Source: Escherichia phage vB_EcoM_G8. Taken from it: a stretch of DNA of 64,000 nt. The DNA lies in sequence record NC_054915.1; one strand, 5' to 3'. The notes beneath the pieces were generated by a model that was not told the origin of the DNA, searched no databases, and worked only from the letters and a program-made list of their open reading frames with translations. How positions within the stretch are numbered: position 1 is the first letter of the stretch; every line of letters begins with the position of its first letter. The position numbers were made by a program, and so were the translations under genes. Below are positions 19,713-64,000 of the stretch, in pieces.

Positions 19713-19742
19713 ACTATACCATAGTCTCGTTAGCTTGTAAAC
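19713..19742 (-). promoter_or_regulatory. T4-type early promoter for dmd (-10 TATAGT)
   Basis: plus strand actata-18nt-gtaaac overlapping gene 41 stop. Confidence 0.65.
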
Positions 19743-21169
19743 TAAAATTTTAATTCATTCGCCAAAGCATCTAACTGAGCTCGAGTGGATTCATTTCTTT
19801 GATAGCGATTCTGTTCAGCCTGAATCTGCTGTGAACCTGCTACTTCACTCACTTCAGTTGGAGTAGAATCTTGTTCAATTTCTACCCATTTCTGATTTCC
19901 CTTTTGAACACCCATCAAAAACTTATTCCACTTATTCTTATCACCATATCGTGATTTGATTTGCTTAATGAGTTGTTGTTCAGCAGCTGCTAGCTCCTCG
20001 GTTTCAATGACCGCAAGCATAAAATCAGCTGTCGCTGGAAGACCAGCAGATTCTGCGATATCACTCATGTTAACATCAGAAGAATCCCAAGCTTGTTTGC
20101 CGACCTGCGCTGCAGTCCAAAGAACAGTTTCGGTTTCAACAGCCAAAGCACGCAATTCCTCTGCAATAGCTTTAACAGTTGTGTAACTATTTTCTGAATA
20201 AACTCTAATGCGGCAAGATTTACAAATACCTAGATAGTCGACAATAATGATTGTTGGAACAAAATTCTTTTTGAGCTTTAATTCATTTAAAAGTGATCGA
20301 AATGTATTAGCGTCTGCTCCACCAGTAGGATATTGCTTAACGATTAAACGACCAAGGGTAGATTTCTCACGCCATTTTTCCATTTTTCCTTTATACTCGG
20401 CGTAAGAAATATGTCCATCATCAATATCGTCAAGAGAAACATCGAGCATATTAGCATCAATACGTTTAGCGCAGACTTCTTCTGCCATTTCCATGGAGAT
20501 ATAAAGAACGTTATGACCAAGCTGCAAATAATCTGCTGCTAATGAACACAATCCTAATGATTTACCAACGTTAACGCCAGCCATTAAAACGTTCAATGTT
20601 CCAGTTTCAGCTCCGCCTTTCGTAATTTTGTTTAGAATTCTGAGTTTAAATGGAACTTTACGAGCTTTATTCATATAAGATAGCCAACGTGCTTCATAGT
20701 CATCCATCCAATCATGACCAACGTAACTATCAAATGAAATAGATAATGCTTGCCGCATGATGTCAGGAATAGCACCAACATCCGGCATTTTCTTATTTCG
20801 TTTTTCCGGAGGAAGCTCAGCATTAGTTTGAATTTCGATTATTTTAGACGTAGCATTAAACATCGCCCTTTGCTGAACATATTTTTCTGTTTCTTTTATT
20901 AACCAACTGTGGTCTTCTGGAGAATCAGCCAGTTTTGAAATAAGTGTTTTTACACCAGAATATTCTGTTTCAGTAAATGAACTATTTTCTAATGCAACAT
21001 TTAACGCATTAATAGATGGAACGCTATGGTACTCATTAACATGAGATTTAATTAATTTGAATGTATTTTTAGCTGGACCACTTTCAAAATATTCTGAATC
21101 CATATATGGCCAAACTTTTGAAAAATAAGCTTGATCAAATATGAGATGAGAAAGAATAATTTCTACCAC
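19742..21169 (-). CDS. 41: replicative DNA helicase gp41 (DnaB-like)
   Basis: 475-aa ORF; Walker A GVNVGKS; T4 gp41 length. Confidence 0.95.
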   Translation of the reverse strand: MVEIILSHLIFDQAYFSKVWPYMDSEYFESGPAKNTFKLIKSHVNEYHSVPSINALNVALENSSFTETEYSGVKTLISKLADSPEDHSWLIKETEKYVQQRAMFNATSKIIEIQTNAELPPEKRNKKMPDVGAIPDIMRQALSISFDSYVGHDWMDDYEARWLSYMNKARKVPFKLRILNKITKGGAETGTLNVLMAGVNVGKSLGLCSLAADYLQLGHNVLYISMEMAEEVCAKRIDANMLDVSLDDIDDGHISYAEYKGKMEKWREKSTLGRLIVKQYPTGGADANTFRSLLNELKLKKNFVPTIIIVDYLGICKSCRIRVYSENSYTTVKAIAEELRALAVETETVLWTAAQVGKQAWDSSDVNMSDIAESAGLPATADFMLAVIETEELAAAEQQLIKQIKSRYGDKNKWNKFLMGVQKGNQKWVEIEQDSTPTEVSEVAGSQQIQAEQNRYQRNESTRAQLDALANELKF

Positions 21170-41378: not shown

Positions 41379-41849
41379 TTAATCATGTTTCCACACCCCA
41401 TCGGTATTTGACCAAAGTCGCTGATTATCTGATCCTCGCCACAGCTTTTTAGTCGGAAGATTTTTCTCATACTTCCCATCAATAATAACATCAACATATT
41501 TAAGCATTTCTAGTTGTTTAATATCTTCAAACTTATATCCTGCCCACAACCAAATGCTTTTATTGGGATAAAGATTTTTAATAGTTTGAACCACAGAGTG
41601 AATCACGTCTCTGTTATCAGGATAAAGAGGGTCACCTCCGGTTATAGTCAATCCTTCTATATAATCATTATTCAAACATTCAATTAATTGTTCTAGTGTT
41701 TCACCAGTGAATGGAATACCATTTCTAGCATTCCATGTTGATTTATTATAACACCCTTCACATTTATGCAAACAACCCGTAACGAAAAGAACGACCCTGC
41801 AACCAGGGCCATTCACAAAATCGCAAGGATAAAATCTATCGTAATTCAT
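41379..41849 (-). CDS. nrdG: anaerobic ribonucleotide reductase activating protein (radical SAM)
   Basis: 156-aa ORF; CxxxCxxC cluster in FVTGCLHKCEGCYN. Confidence 0.9.
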   Translation of the reverse strand: MNYDRFYPCDFVNGPGCRVVLFVTGCLHKCEGCYNKSTWNARNGIPFTGETLEQLIECLNNDYIEGLTITGGDPLYPDNRDVIHSVVQTIKNLYPNKSIWLWAGYKFEDIKQLEMLKYVDVIIDGKYEKNLPTKKLWRGSDNQRLWSNTDGVWKHD

Positions 41850-43119
41850 TGATGCTTAACCCTATGCATGATTTCTTTATTTTTACCGAGATTAAATCCG
41901 CGTTCGTTCGGGTTTCCAAGATATCCGCATGTTCTTCTTATTGTGTTCATCTTTTTAGGATCAGTTTCTCCACAAATAGAACAAACAAATCCGTTTTCAG
42001 TAGGAGTCATTTCATGGGTACTTCCGCATGTAAAACATTTATCTACCGGCATGTTAACACCAAAATAATCTAAATGTTGTGCAGCATAATCCCACACAGC
42101 CTCAAGACCTTTTAAGTTATTTTTCATATCAGGAAGTTCAACATAAGAAATGTGACCACCTGTCGCAATGAAATGATATGGCGCTTCACGAGAAATCTTT
42201 TCAAACGGAGTAATATTTTCTTCTACTGAAACATGGAAACTGTTAGTGTACCAGCCTTTATCGGTAACATCTTTTACACTTCCATATTTTTCTGTATCGA
42301 GTTTACAGAAGCGATAACAAAGGTTTTCAGCAGGAGTAGAATATAAACTAAAAGCAAATCCGGTTCTTTCAGTCCACTGTTTAAGATGAGCATTCATTTT
42401 AGTTAAAATTTCTCGTCCAATACCACGACCAACAAGAATATTCAATTCGTGAATACCTATGTATCCTAGGGACACTGAACTTCTACCGTTTTTAAATAAC
42501 TCAATTATATCGTCATCAGGTTTAAGACGAACCCCGAATGCACCTTCTTGGTAAAGAATAGGAGCAACAGTCGCTTTAACTCCTTTTAAGGAATTGATTC
42601 TACACATCAATGCTTCAAAACATAAATCCATTCGTTCATTGAACAATTCGGCAAATTTCTGTTCATTGAACTGTGTTCCAATATAAGAATCTAACGCAAT
42701 ACGAGGAAGATTCAATGTTACAACGCCAAGATTATTACGTCCATCAAGAATTTCATTACCAGTCGAATCTTTCCATACGCTCAAGAAACTACGGCAACCC
42801 ATTGGAGAAACAGGAATAGATGAACCAGTGATAGCTTTATTATTCTTAGCTGAAATAATATCAGGATACATTCTTTTGCTTGCACACTCTAGAGCAAGCT
42901 GCTTAATATCATAGTTCGGATCGTCTTTATAAAGATTAACACCTTCTTCAACGAACATAACAAGTTTAGGGAAAATAGGAGTTATCCCGTCACGACCAAG
43001 ACCTTTAATACGATTTTTCAGAATTGCTTTCTGAATCATTCGTTCAGTCCAGTCAGTTCCCGTACCAAATGTAATTGTTACAAAAGGTGTTTGCCCGTTT
43101 GAACTGAATAACGTGTTCA
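41846..43119 (-). CDS. nrdD: anaerobic ribonucleotide reductase NrdD, exon 2
   Basis: contains glycyl-radical motif RRTCGYLG and C-terminal Zn-ribbon cysteines; joined to exon 1 gives 605 aa. Confidence 0.88.
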
Positions 43120-43146
43120 CTTCATCAATGTGTTCAGTAGAGTTCG

Positions 43147-43923
43147 CTACTTCTCTACCCGTTTATATGAAACAATGTAATTTGGATAATTGTCATCTAA
43201 ACACAAATCTTTAATACGACTTGGGTGGAGTTTTAAATCTTTAGCAGCATCCACAAATGATTTATAGATATTGTCATTTATTTTAACATATTCTGGGACG
43301 GGATGAATTGTTATTTTTATATCTATAACATTTGGATGATTACTAACCTGTTCTTCAGAGCATTTAAGAAATTTTGCAGCTGATTTAAAACTTCTAAATT
43401 TATTTCCGGATTTTAAAGCTATAGAAACAGTCTTTTTAGCCGTTCTACTACCAATATTATTTTTAACATGAGCTTCACTTCTACTATTATTTTTATAATG
43501 CTCAATCAATTTCTCTCGTATCTTATCTTTATGTTTTAAAGATAAGATTTTACCTTTATGGGCATTACTAAGTTTTTGCTTATGTTCTTCTGAATCCGGA
43601 TATTTGTTAAATTTATATCCACCTATAGATTTATTAAGAATAAATTCGTTATTAAAATATTTCCTAATAAGCATTTCTTCATGTTTAAGGGCCGATTCAT
43701 AAGAATCAAAAACTTGAAGAATTATCCACTTAGCTTTATAATCTTTAAGCTTTTCTTTAACAAGCTTAGATGACGAATTGTATTCTTTCCAATTTGTATC
43801 TTTACCATATATAGTTTTGAATTTTTTAAAACCTATATAAAAAGACTTATCAGGAAATCTTACCATATAGGTAAATGCTACAGAATTGGCAAGTTTTAAG
43901 CTTTTTCTTAATTTCCATTTCAT
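43147..43923 (-). CDS. intron-encoded GIY-YIG homing endonuclease (I-TevII-like)
   Basis: 258-aa ORF inside intron; GIY-YIG-like FTYMV...FYIG N-terminus; length equals I-TevII. Confidence 0.8.
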   Translation of the reverse strand: MKWKLRKSLKLANSVAFTYMVRFPDKSFYIGFKKFKTIYGKDTNWKEYNSSSKLVKEKLKDYKAKWIILQVFDSYESALKHEEMLIRKYFNNEFILNKSIGGYKFNKYPDSEEHKQKLSNAHKGKILSLKHKDKIREKLIEHYKNNSRSEAHVKNNIGSRTAKKTVSIALKSGNKFRSFKSAAKFLKCSEEQVSNHPNVIDIKITIHPVPEYVKINDNIYKSFVDAAKDLKLHPSRIKDLCLDDNYPNYIVSYKRVEK

Positions 43924-43930
43924 CGTTTCA

Positions 43931-43955
43931 CCTCGTATTCATATTTATACGAGGA
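43931..43955 (-). promoter_or_regulatory. late promoter TATAAATA inside an 8-bp hairpin that would sequester the I-TevII RBS in read-through transcripts
   Basis: plus strand cctcgtat-tcatattta-atacgagg; tatttata at about 43942-43949. Confidence 0.65.
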
Positions 43956-44152
43956 TAAACAGCTGCATGTCACCATGCAGTTCAGACTATATCTTCAACT
44001 CTTAGAGTTGTCTGCCGTTTCGGGTCGCTTGACCCTACTCCCTTACATTCATCAGGGATAGTCGTTGGGCATTTACAGCTACTGCTGATTTAGCAACGGA
44101 TTGTCTCAGTGAGAGTTTCCCGTTTTAGGCAGATTTTACATGAGCTTGACTT

Positions 44153-44696
44153 ACGTTAACTCATAAGCTTGGAATGCATCGTATACGTCTTTTTCTGTTT
44201 TAGATTGAGCATAATTCAACGCATCAGCGATTTGCCATTTTTCTGCATCCTCAATATGTTTTGCATAGGTGCGTTTAACATAAGGAGAAAGTACTTTATC
44301 TACATTCGCAAATGTAGTTCCGCCATACTGGTGTGAAGCAACTTGTGCAGTAATTTGTGCCATAATTGCAGTAGCAACACCAATCGATTTAGGCGTTTCA
44401 ATTTGAGCATTGCCTAATTTAAATCCGTTCTCAAGCATCCCCTTTAAATCGACTAAACAGCAATTAGTAAAAGGCAATGATATACTGTAATCTAAATCAT
44501 GAAAATGAATTAATCCAACATTATGGGCATTTACAATATGACTTGGAAGAATACGACAAGCGATATGTTTAGAAACAATACCGGCCATTAAATCTCTTTT
44601 TGTTGGAAAGACGCGAGAATCTTTGTTGGCGTTTTCTGTATTTAATTCTTTATCTTTATTTGAAATAAAATTTAAAACATCTTTTTCTAAAGACAT
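44153..44696 (-). CDS. nrdD: anaerobic ribonucleotide reductase NrdD, exon 1
   Basis: 181 codons from MSLEKDVLNF... to ...AYELT before the inferred 5' splice site. Confidence 0.85.
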
Positions 44697-60662: not shown

Positions 60663-60922
60663 ATACTTGCTTCTTTGAGTTTCGTTTTAGCAATAGTTAA
60701 CTGATCGAGGCTTTCGGCGTAATTCTTCGCGAGTTCATCATCTTCACAGCTATCAAATGCTTCCCAGAATTCATCGTATAAAGCGTCAAAGATAAGTCCT
60801 AAACGAACTTCAGCGTCTTTGATAGCATTCACTTTACCGATTTTCTCTTCAGTATGCGGCTTATAACCCTTAATATCTTCAATCATATTTGACTTCCTCA
60901 CCAGTACATAAATCATATTCAA
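60620..60922 (-). CDS. hypothetical protein (vs.x series)
   Basis: 100-aa ORF. Confidence 0.5.
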
Positions 60923-61100
60923 CTAAACGAATAGGTTCATGAATGCCATATCCCTGAACAGAAATTTCTGTCGTAGGATAAATTCCATCAATATCACCCA
61001 TATTCCACGCTTCGTTAAATTGCTGTTCGCCTGAATTACTAAACCATTCGGCGAAAGCATTTAGCACATCTTCAGAACCTTCAATAATTATCTTTGCCAT
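60879..61100 (-). CDS. hypothetical small acidic protein
   Basis: 73-aa ORF. Confidence 0.5.
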   Translation of the reverse strand: MAKIIIEGSEDVLNAFAEWFSNSGEQQFNEAWNMGDIDGIYPTTEISVQGYGIHEPIRLVEYDLCTGEEVKYD

Positions 61101-61462
61101 TACAAACTCTCGGTAAAGGTACGAGCGATAACGTCGCGCTGCTGTTCCGGAGTCAGAGAGTTAAAGCGAACTGCATAACCGGATACACGGATGGTCAGCT
61201 GCGGATATTTTTCCGGATGCTTAACTGCATCTTCCAGAGTTTCACGACGCAGAACGTTAACGTTCAGGTGTTGACCACCTTCAATTTTAACTGTAGGCTG
61301 TTGCTCAATTTCAATTTCACGGGCATGCAAACCATAGAAAATTTCTGGGTCTACAAAAGAGTCCTCTTTAAAGGTTTTAGAGACAATAATTCGTGCTTGA
61401 ATACCATCTTCAAAATAAATAGTACCTTTATGTGTGCCTTCAAGAATTTGATATGCTTTCAT
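61100..61462 (-). CDS. autonomous glycyl radical cofactor (GrcA/YfiD-like; T4 Y06I-type)
   Basis: 120-aa ORF; C-terminal 60 aa ...[59 protein letters not shown] matches remembered E. coli GrcA and PFL glycyl-radical domain. Confidence 0.9.
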
Positions 61463-61469
61463 ATAAACC

Positions 61470-61850
61470 TCAATTAGAAAATAAATTTATCCAAGATTGT
61501 TCTTTAATTAAAAATGGCTCAGAATCATATGCCATTAAACTCTGTGTGATTAGTCCTTTAAAAGGCCCATCAATAAATTCCATGGTAAAATATGGAATTT
61601 TATTCATTAGCCGTGCATTAGGAGCAGTACATAAAACTCTGCATCCTTTGAATACACCTTTTTGTAATTTGTATTGCTTGGGATAAAATTCGCTCAAAAT
61701 GTTATTATTTGCTAAAATTTCAAAATGATTCACCAATTTATTTTTAATAGTTTTTGGCGAAAAATAAAGATATTCGAAAAGCTGAGTGTCTGTCATCATT
61801 GCATTCCGATTACGAAAAACTGTGGACGAGTAATACCACCAATACAACAT
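61470..61850 (-). CDS. hypothetical protein
   Basis: 126-aa ORF. Confidence 0.5.
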
Positions 61851-63410: not shown

Positions 63411-63524
63411 TTAGTAAATTGATTTACCAAAGTATTTGTACCAAGTCGGACGTTGATCAATTTTTTCATCTAAGCGTGCTTGATTTATCGCAATGGACGC
63501 TTCGGACGGGTCATAATTTCCTCC
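63411..63524 (-). pseudogene. denV: 3' remnant of denV (endonuclease V / pyrimidine dimer glycosylase), last about 37 codons only
   Basis: frame reads ...[37 protein letters not shown] matching remembered T4 EndoV C-terminus ...[38 protein letters not shown]; upstream part replaced by promoter sequence. Confidence 0.6.
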
Positions 63525-63541
63525 AAGTAGTTGATGAATGT

Positions 63542-63571
63542 ATAGTATCAAAACCCTTGGAGGAAGTAAAC
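63542..63571 (-). promoter_or_regulatory. T4-type early promoter immediately upstream of denV remnant
   Basis: plus strand atagta-18nt-gtaaac. Confidence 0.6.
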
Positions 63572-63573
63572 AA

Positions 63574-63855
63574 CTATTTTTCTGAAGCGCCTGAAATATA
63601 TTTTTCAAGACGTTGTTTCATCAGTGAGCCGTTCTTAGCGATTTCTTCCGGTTTATCGCACATACGCAACAAGGCTTCAAGCTTAACGATATCACTGGTG
63701 CGCTCAAATTTGCGAGTATCTATCTTACTAGCAAGTTCAGAAATACGTGCTAATAGACTTTCAGCTTCAACCAAAGCTGCACCTAGCTTAGTTGCAAATG
63801 TGTCAGTAGCTTCGTTAAGAATAGATTCTGATAAAAATTCACTATATGTTTTCAT
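63574..63855 (-). CDS. internal protein with capsid targeting sequence
   Basis: 93-aa ORF from [11 protein letters not shown]; ATGA overlap with stop of gene e. Confidence 0.65.
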
Positions 63856-64000
63856 ATATACGCTTTCCAAGTTCCTGTTTTAAATGTTGAGATTACGCGT
63901 TTCGCGCGATTAGGTGTCTGACGATACCATTTAGATTGGGCTAGATTTACTGCTGCTTCATCCCAGCGTTTTTGTTGGAGCATACGTAAAGAATTAGTAA
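63852..64000 (-). CDS. e: lysozyme e, C-terminal 49 codons (gene continues beyond window end)
   Basis: translation ...[47 protein letters not shown] matches remembered T4 lysozyme C-terminus. Confidence 0.85.

Follow-up and report, generated by a model that had tools for sequence, protein, structure and literature searches.

An internal segment identical to Escherichia coli grcA in the vs.6 (GrcA) gene of Escherichia phage vB_EcoM_G8 supports host-to-phage recombination onto an older phage homologue

The stretch of DNA analysed, called the window, comprised 64,000 nucleotides of the Escherichia phage vB_EcoM_G8 genome (G8; NC_054915.1). It was a Tequatrovirus sequence, 96-97% identical to Escherichia T4-like phages, and its early region regB-denV was 96.9% identical to that of T4, with homologues of the T4 proteins vs.7 (99% identical) and vs.8 (95% identical) found by tblastn. 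The open reading frame at 61100..61462 on the minus strand encoded a 120-residue GrcA/YfiD homologue, as assigned from the open reading frame list, Pfam, TIGR04365, PDB entry 6owr and synteny with T4 vs.6. It was flanked by homologues of vs.5 and vs.7, as T4 vs.6 is, and its product was identical to T4 vs.6 (Y06I, NP_049730) at 118 of 120 residues, with Q54 and R73 in G8 and P54 and H73 in T4; position and identity both placed it in the T4 vs.6 orthologue group. The T4 orthologue is named GrcA in GenBank/RefSeq records. A Shine-Dalgarno sequence read from the DNA (GAGG, 61468..61471, minus strand), 5 nt upstream of the ATG, overlapped the TGA of the vs.7 homologue (61470-61850), and the stop codon overlapped the ATG of the downstream vs.5 homologue (60879-61100) in the sequence TAATG. 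The phage gene was in an operon with overlapping start and stop codons, whereas E. coli grcA is expressed from a host promoter. A scan for promoters and terminators around the gene returned counts no higher than in shuffled sequence. Farther along the same early region, tblastn with T4 DenV (138 aa) matched only residues 96-137, at 63414-63539 and with 74% identity; the N-terminal two thirds of denV were missing, and the region held the open reading frames 63411-63608 and 63574-63870 (-). A 98-residue internal-protein-like open reading frame with the motif MKTYSEF… was directly upstream of this denV remnant.

At ~14 kDa, the stand-alone G8 protein was small and in essence no more than a glycyl-radical domain. 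Pfam returned Gly_radical (PF01228; 67 bits, cut-off 22.2) and no other domain in the 120 residues. The NCBIfam GrcA equivalog model TIGR04365 (spare_glycyl) aligned with residues 20-120 and scored 154.9 bits, below its cut-off of 170, because the N-terminal half had diverged. The best PDB match was YfiD (6owr; E = 9e-42), followed by the C-terminus of PflB (residues 697-759; E = 5e-26). Residues 92-96, RVSGY, fitted the glycyl-radical motif RVxG[FYW], and the codon of the predicted radical site, Gly95, was computed to lie at 61178..61180 on the minus strand, equivalent to G102 of E. coli GrcA and G734 of PflB. PMC8683613 presents the glycine of the PFL/YfiD motif as the established radical carrier, and cites Wagner et al. 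2001 for the activation of both YfiD and T4 Y06I by PFL-AE and for the restoration of O2-cleaved PFL by both. Activation and repair of PFL would be expected of the G8 protein too, from its 118/120 identity to Y06I. Host PflA would place the radical on Gly95, and the activated phage GrcA would dock on O2-cleaved PflB, replacing the lost C-terminal fragment; this repair should sustain fermentative acetyl-CoA and ATP formation in microaerobic infected cells in which host expression is shut off. The gene, its family and its PFL-repair role are already known, and the interest lies in the DNA-level pattern.

Residues 61-120 of the phage protein were identical to residues 68-127 of E. coli GrcA at 60 of 60 positions (BLASTP; PDB 6owr), as the initial annotation had claimed for the C-terminal 60 residues, whereas residues 1-59 were about one third identical to the N-terminal region of GrcA. 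The two proteins were of the same overall size class and shared the RVSGY motif, the phage protein being 7 residues shorter. In the DNA, three segments were distinguished, all on the minus strand. The 5' half (gene nt 1-178, residues 1-59; 61285..61462) was AT-rich, of the phage lineage, and had no blastn match in 5,426 complete E. coli genomes. The following 172 nt (gene nt 179-350, codons 60-117; 61113..61284), hereafter the patch, matched E. coli grcA perfectly and would be host-derived. The 3' tail (ACC GAG AGT TTG TAA; 61100..61112) differed from the E. coli codons ACT GAA AGC CTG by 4 synonymous changes, confined to the last four sense codons, and pairwise alignment gave no other difference from grcA 3' of the patch. 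Counted over gene nt 179-363, blastn identity to grcA was 97.8% in 5,426 of the 5,426 E. coli genomes, and megablast of the whole 64 kb against the E. coli collection gave 61096-61284 as the sole match.

Composition changed at the same place. The GC content was 0.497 in the patch, against 0.337 in the 5' half and 0.343 in the whole window (z = 3.6), and GC at third codon positions (GC3) rose from 0.20 in the 5' half to 0.43 in the patch. A GC content as high as that of the patch occurred in only 0.02% of 173-nt windows, and its GC3 was reached by only 0.6% of 58-codon windows in the minus-strand open reading frames of the window. The contrast drawn in the initial annotation between GC-rich, host-like 3' DNA and an AT-rich, divergent N-terminal half was therefore borne out, and the pattern greatly exceeds what chance would give. 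The one other 173-nt segment that was equally GC-rich, 19981-20153, was inside a 475-residue open reading frame (19742-21169); it was ruled out as a second host patch, with no megablast match in E. coli.

The 5' junction was sharp. The phage read GTT AAA A|TT GAA GGT and E. coli GTT CGC G|TT GAA GGT, and upstream of nt 179 the similarity to E. coli grcA was lost entirely. At the other end, a GAG AGT ending, in the form GAG AGT (CTA), was common to Mosigvirus, Slopekvirus and Pseudotevenvirus genes, and the ending of the G8 gene was therefore phage-type. The initial annotation had proposed that a host 3' segment was grafted onto a phage gene by recombination; the host segment on a phage gene held, but the host-identical DNA is an internal patch and not a 3' graft, since the last four codons are phage-type. 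T4 vs.6 shared both the E. coli-identical patch and the 5' junction with G8, but matched E. coli through codon 118 (nt 354), 4 nt past the end of the G8 match (nt 350), and ended in ACT GAA AGT TTG. Gene nt 354-360 (61103-61109) carried mixed E. coli-type and phage-type bases among Tequatroviruses (GAA/GAG, AGC/AGT, CTG/TTG/CTA), and at the adjacent tail sites 357/358 all four combinations occurred, a four-gamete pattern. The mixed tail codons suggest variable conversion end-points or recurrent mutation; as recurrent mutation could give the same four-gamete pattern, it is no proof of repeated exchange. The 5' half was 88-90% identical in nucleotide sequence to that of Mosigvirus, 77% to Karamvirus and 73% to Jiaodavirus. 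This T-even ancestry of the 5' half, together with the alignment of the whole protein to GrcA, points to a complete and old phage grcA homologue as the ancestor, of which the middle-to-3' part was overwritten.

Synonymous divergence of the patch from E. coli was 0.02 (dS) in this phage and averaged 0.05-0.06 over 20 Tequatrovirus and Mosigvirus genes. The allele closest to the patch, out of about 160 from enterobacteria, was that of E. coli. Over the patch, host alleles differed from each other in step with relatedness (E. coli vs Citrobacter 92.9%, E. coli vs Salmonella 84.2%), and phage and E. coli were 97.8-98.9% identical, depending on the span counted. The nesting of the patch within Escherichia and its host-like GC and GC3 indicate the direction host to phage. 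Pseudotevenvirus EC-F2 encoded the identical 58-residue peptide over codons 60-117 (dN = 0) with a dS of 1.47 to E. coli; since the same peptide was compatible with saturated synonymous divergence, the host identity of the patch does not follow from protein constraint. In Karamvirus and Slopekvirus the dS of the patch region to E. coli was 1.8, and the segments of the gene were discordant, the dS between the window and Karamvirus being 0.53 for the 5' half but 2.1 for the patch. These comparisons support the reading of the gene as a host/phage chimera, in which recombination probably placed a copied segment of E. coli grcA in a phage homologue that was older and had already diverged.

Judged by synonymous sites the transfer is young, and it is recent only when set against the separation of the T-even genera. 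The recent recombination suggested at the outset agreed with the dS of 0.02, but the patch was not private to this phage, being present in about 640 records including T4 and RB69. An excess of identity to E. coli grcA over other T-even homologues, which the initial annotation had anticipated, was absent in comparison with close relatives and large in comparison with the other T-even genera (75-83%).

A blastn search of 50,697 phage records with the E. coli patch as query gave a bimodal distribution of identities, with 637 records at 95% or more, 8 at 90-95%, 298 at 80-90% and 566 at 60-80%; database-wide statements here rest on these bands. The highest band took in T4 and RB69. Base-by-base reading covered about 20 genes from Tequatrovirus and Mosigvirus and a few from other genera; among the Tequatrovirus and Mosigvirus genes, that of Escherichia phage Nami (91.9%) alone fell outside the high group. 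The patch was absent from Krischvirus and Slopekvirus, and also from Karamvirus, Pseudotevenvirus and T5-like phages. The unconverted state is represented by the GrcA homologues of Karam-, Slopek-, Pseudoteven- and Krischvirus, of T5-like Demerecviridae and of jumbo Vibrio and Erwinia phages. These were the same small glycyl-radical protein with the conserved C-terminal peptide, but their 3' halves were 70-87% identical to any sampled host allele and saturated at synonymous sites.

Three observations on distribution counted against host-to-phage conversion as the main reading. Krischvirus and Slopekvirus infect E. coli and yet had no host-like patch. The E. coli allele persisted in Tequatroviruses whose isolation hosts were Hafnia, Salmonella and Citrobacter. 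Nami (MZ502380; vs.6 at 1521-1883), an outlier among Tequatroviruses, had a patch dS of 0.24 to E. coli, with 9 synonymous and 3 non-synonymous differences, including N67H and, beside the radical motif, I91S. Several of the variant bases of Nami were in the phage-type state of other genera, and its patch could be an older one, could have recombined with an unconverted allele, or could contain sequencing error. Two further sequences were noted outside these genera. A group of ~150-kb metagenomic phages (e.g. IMG/VR 3300008607_000007, grcA at ~1501-1893) had a 53-nt perfect run to grcA of Haemophilus parainfluenzae and 83.6% identity to it over the patch, and this Pasteurellaceae-phage group may have a partial or older host-derived patch. 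The 'viral' contig IMG/VR 2706794630_000006 encoded a complete GrcA of host type (MITGIQITKA…) with 91% identity to the gene of Yersinia, and probably represents host DNA or the flank of a prophage and not a phage grcA.

A parallel patch was found in phages of Klebsiella. The Jiaodavirus genes (Klebsiella phages 15882-6-3 and KPV15) had a GC step from 0.37 to 0.55. With a first host sample of 80 species without K. pneumoniae, the best identity of the Jiaodavirus patch was 87-90%. A K. pneumoniae-type allele was then taken from enterobacterial contigs of the metagenome scan, its encoded GrcA being exactly GRCA_KLEP7, and the Jiaodavirus patch was 96.0% identical to it, including a perfect run of 131 nt from the same 5' junction onward (AAAA|GTT GAA GGC). 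The dS of the Jiaodavirus patch was 0.17 to the K. pneumoniae-type allele and 0.62 to E. coli. Used as the query against the phage database, the K. pneumoniae-type patch matched 77 records at 95-99% and 61 at 90-95%, and among the matches listed all of those at 90% or above were ~166-168-kb Klebsiella or Raoultella phages; E. coli phages were at 85-88%. The two residues in ETL(E/L)DAV(K/E)HP that differ between E. coli and Klebsiella GrcA agreed with those of the respective host in every converted group of phages. By these sequence comparisons the Jiaodavirus patch is clearly a second, host-specific replacement. The grcA patches of Salmonella enterica and of non-pneumoniae Klebsiella, used as queries, found no phage record at 95% or above, and the lack of a Salmonella-type patch implies that replacement, though recurrent, was not universal.

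Tequatrovirus and Mosigvirus were 77-79% identical over the wider region, and the dS between them was 0.45 in the 5' half of vs.6 and 0.106 in the patch, the latter no more than within a genus; between the window and RB69 the difference between segments was significant (Fisher p = 0.001). When six Tequatrovirus loci were aligned with seven of Mosigvirus, 12 differences were fixed between the genera in gene nt 39-170; nt 171-359 had none, and from nt 360 differences were again dense (probability of no fixed difference in the island about 1.6e-6 at the upstream in-gene density). The edges of the island shared by both genera fell within about 9 nt of the two limits of host identity. Independent conversion predicts this coincidence, because conversion extends only as far as homology. 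The phage patches were star-like around the E. coli allele, with a dS to E. coli (0.05-0.06) about half of the phage-phage value, and in the genes read base by base no site was fixed in the phage patches against E. coli. Within the two genera the dS was 0.11 and 0.08 in the patch and 0.14 and 0.06 in the 5' half, and the likeness of these diversities indicates that conversion was infrequent relative to the divergence within a genus; ongoing conversion at high frequency within genera was not supported. The patch was probably acquired more than once.

A single host-to-phage conversion, followed by spread from phage to phage between the E. coli-infecting genera and with a separate origin of the Klebsiella-phage patch, is an alternative suggested by the identical 5' junction (AAAA|TTGAAGG) in Tequatrovirus and Mosigvirus, two genera that share hosts and are known as mosaic. 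The 88-90% identity of the vs.6 5' half between the genera, against 77-79% in the flanks, also hints at an earlier exchange. This alternative was nevertheless judged unlikely. Genus-fixed differences persisted to nt 170 and resumed at 360, and with fixed differences so near both edges of the patch, exchange between phages would have needed both crossovers exactly at the limits of homology to the host. No phage-specific derived site was common to all patches, and Jiaodavirus provided an independent event that gave the same junction.

Explanations that dispense with recombination, or with transfer altogether, fared worse than repeated conversion. An ancient acquisition of grcA, with purifying selection freezing the 3' synonymous sites, is suggested by the near invariance of the C-terminal 60 residues in hosts and phages and by the biased codons of grcA, a highly expressed host gene. 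EC-F2 and related phages, however, had the identical peptide at a dS of 1.5, the patches of E. coli and Salmonella differed by 16%, the boundaries were knife-edge, and the Klebsiella phages matched the Klebsiella-type allele instead; the synonymous divergence of EC-F2 and the Klebsiella-type patch of Jiaodavirus refute this explanation, which was held to be extremely improbable. Host reads mis-assembled into the phage contig would account for a patch 100% identical to the host, phage preparations being contaminated by host DNA. But within one open reading frame the patch was bordered by phage sequence at either end, and its recurrence in 637 independent records, the reference genomes of T4 and RB69 among them, with the same frame and junctions and with lineage-specific substitutions, refutes mis-assembly and leaves it a next to negligible probability. 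Concerning function, the protein might be a spare glycyl-radical domain for the phage NrdD and not for host PFL, as the phage encodes both NrdD and NrdG and an early comparative paper speculated on a role of vs.6 in nucleotide metabolism (PMC1524935). The domain was instead of the PflB/GrcA type, with the match to PflB 697-759 given above and a C-terminal domain identical to host GrcA; the same PDB search returned no NrdD structure at E <= 0.001, the C-terminus of the NrdD in the window had a different sequence, and T4 Y06I complements PFL according to PMC8683613. The nrd genes, which the initial annotation had placed a few kb away and noted as also relying on glycyl radicals, were in fact at 41382-44696, about 16-18 kb away, with nrdD split into exon-like parts (44154-44696 and 41849-43120) and followed by nrdG (41382-41849). 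Nothing linked the gene to NrdD, and a role for the protein there was considered very improbable. The insert in nrdD contained an open reading frame resembling a GIY-YIG/NUMOD1 homing endonuclease (43150-43923).

Homology-limited gene conversion from the host chromosome into the phage grcA, probably repeated and acting on a gene already known for PFL repair, was thus retained as the likely explanation. The mechanism is suggested by the sequence pattern together with the recombination behaviour of T4. T-even phages have very active homologous recombination and fragment the host DNA, and T4 recombines efficiently with homologous resident DNA, as in plasmid marker rescue and with insertion/substitution vectors. 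In a fully phage-type grcA homologue, nt 179-350 would have been overwritten by E. coli grcA through homologous recombination during infection. A fragment of host grcA would pair with the phage segment, about 78-83% similar, and then be copied in, and the tract would end where similarity collapses upstream of codon 60 and, downstream, near the end of the gene. The junctions would be sharp and reproducible because conversion is limited by phage-host homology. A patch once identical to the host could also ease later conversions, which would hold it near the host allele. The similar diversity of the patch and the 5' half within genera, together with the E. coli allele in the isolates from Hafnia, Salmonella and Citrobacter, indicates that conversion was occasional and not routine.

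The closest known evolutionary phenomenon is the intragenic recombination of psbA and psbD. Mosaic cyanophage psbA and psbD genes formed by host-phage intragenic recombination were reportedly described by Zeidner in 2005. As with psbA and psbD, a host-derived metabolic gene in a T4-type phage has exchanged segments with the host copy. In T4-like cyanophages, intragenic host-phage recombination in these genes was accompanied by patchy G+C content (Sullivan 2006, PMC1484495). The kinds of evidence used for psbA were also found for grcA, namely synonymous identity near that of the host with diverged flanks, discordance between segments, a host-to-phage direction and recurrence. Unlike psbA and psbD, grcA has an enterobacterial host and supports fermentation; it has a single patch of near-100% identity that ends at the limit of homology, and the alleles filling the position of the patch came from different hosts in phages of E. 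coli and of Klebsiella. Transfer of grcA from phage to host was not evidenced here, again unlike psbA and psbD. The literature search found no description of the grcA DNA patch or of its host versions; the main T4 review (Miller et al. 2003, PMC150520) was outside that search and may hold an earlier mention. E. coli GrcA (YfiD) itself shared with the phage gene the 172 nt as well as the C-terminal 60 residues.

For practical use, grcA was chosen as a Straboviridae PCR marker in a 2026 typing scheme (PMC12845203). The conserved 3' part of grcA is identical to host chromosome sequence in the ~640 Tequatrovirus/Mosigvirus-type records, which is a warning for such PCR typing, and host-contamination filters and read mappers will also match the patch. 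The patch is at the same time a possible marker of the evolutionary host, with the limit that isolates from Hafnia, Salmonella and Citrobacter keep the E. coli allele.

T-even phages, which destroy the DNA of the host, are regarded as genetically isolated from it. The grcA locus nevertheless presents clean, homology-bounded copying from chromosome to phage, with parallel cases in phages of E. coli and of Klebsiella. A broader reading, offered tentatively and with somewhat less than even expectation, is that enterobacterial chromosomes and strictly virulent T-even phages recombine at a standing hotspot in the 3' part of grcA, where the patch, once seeded, is copied again from the main host of the lineage. 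If so, the patch would be a host barcode, of the E. coli type in Tequatrovirus and Mosigvirus and of the K. pneumoniae type in Jiaodavirus, and it may persist for its exact fit to host PflB/PflA or to codon usage. The classic T4 system would then contain a natural and measurable case of gene conversion from host to lytic phage.
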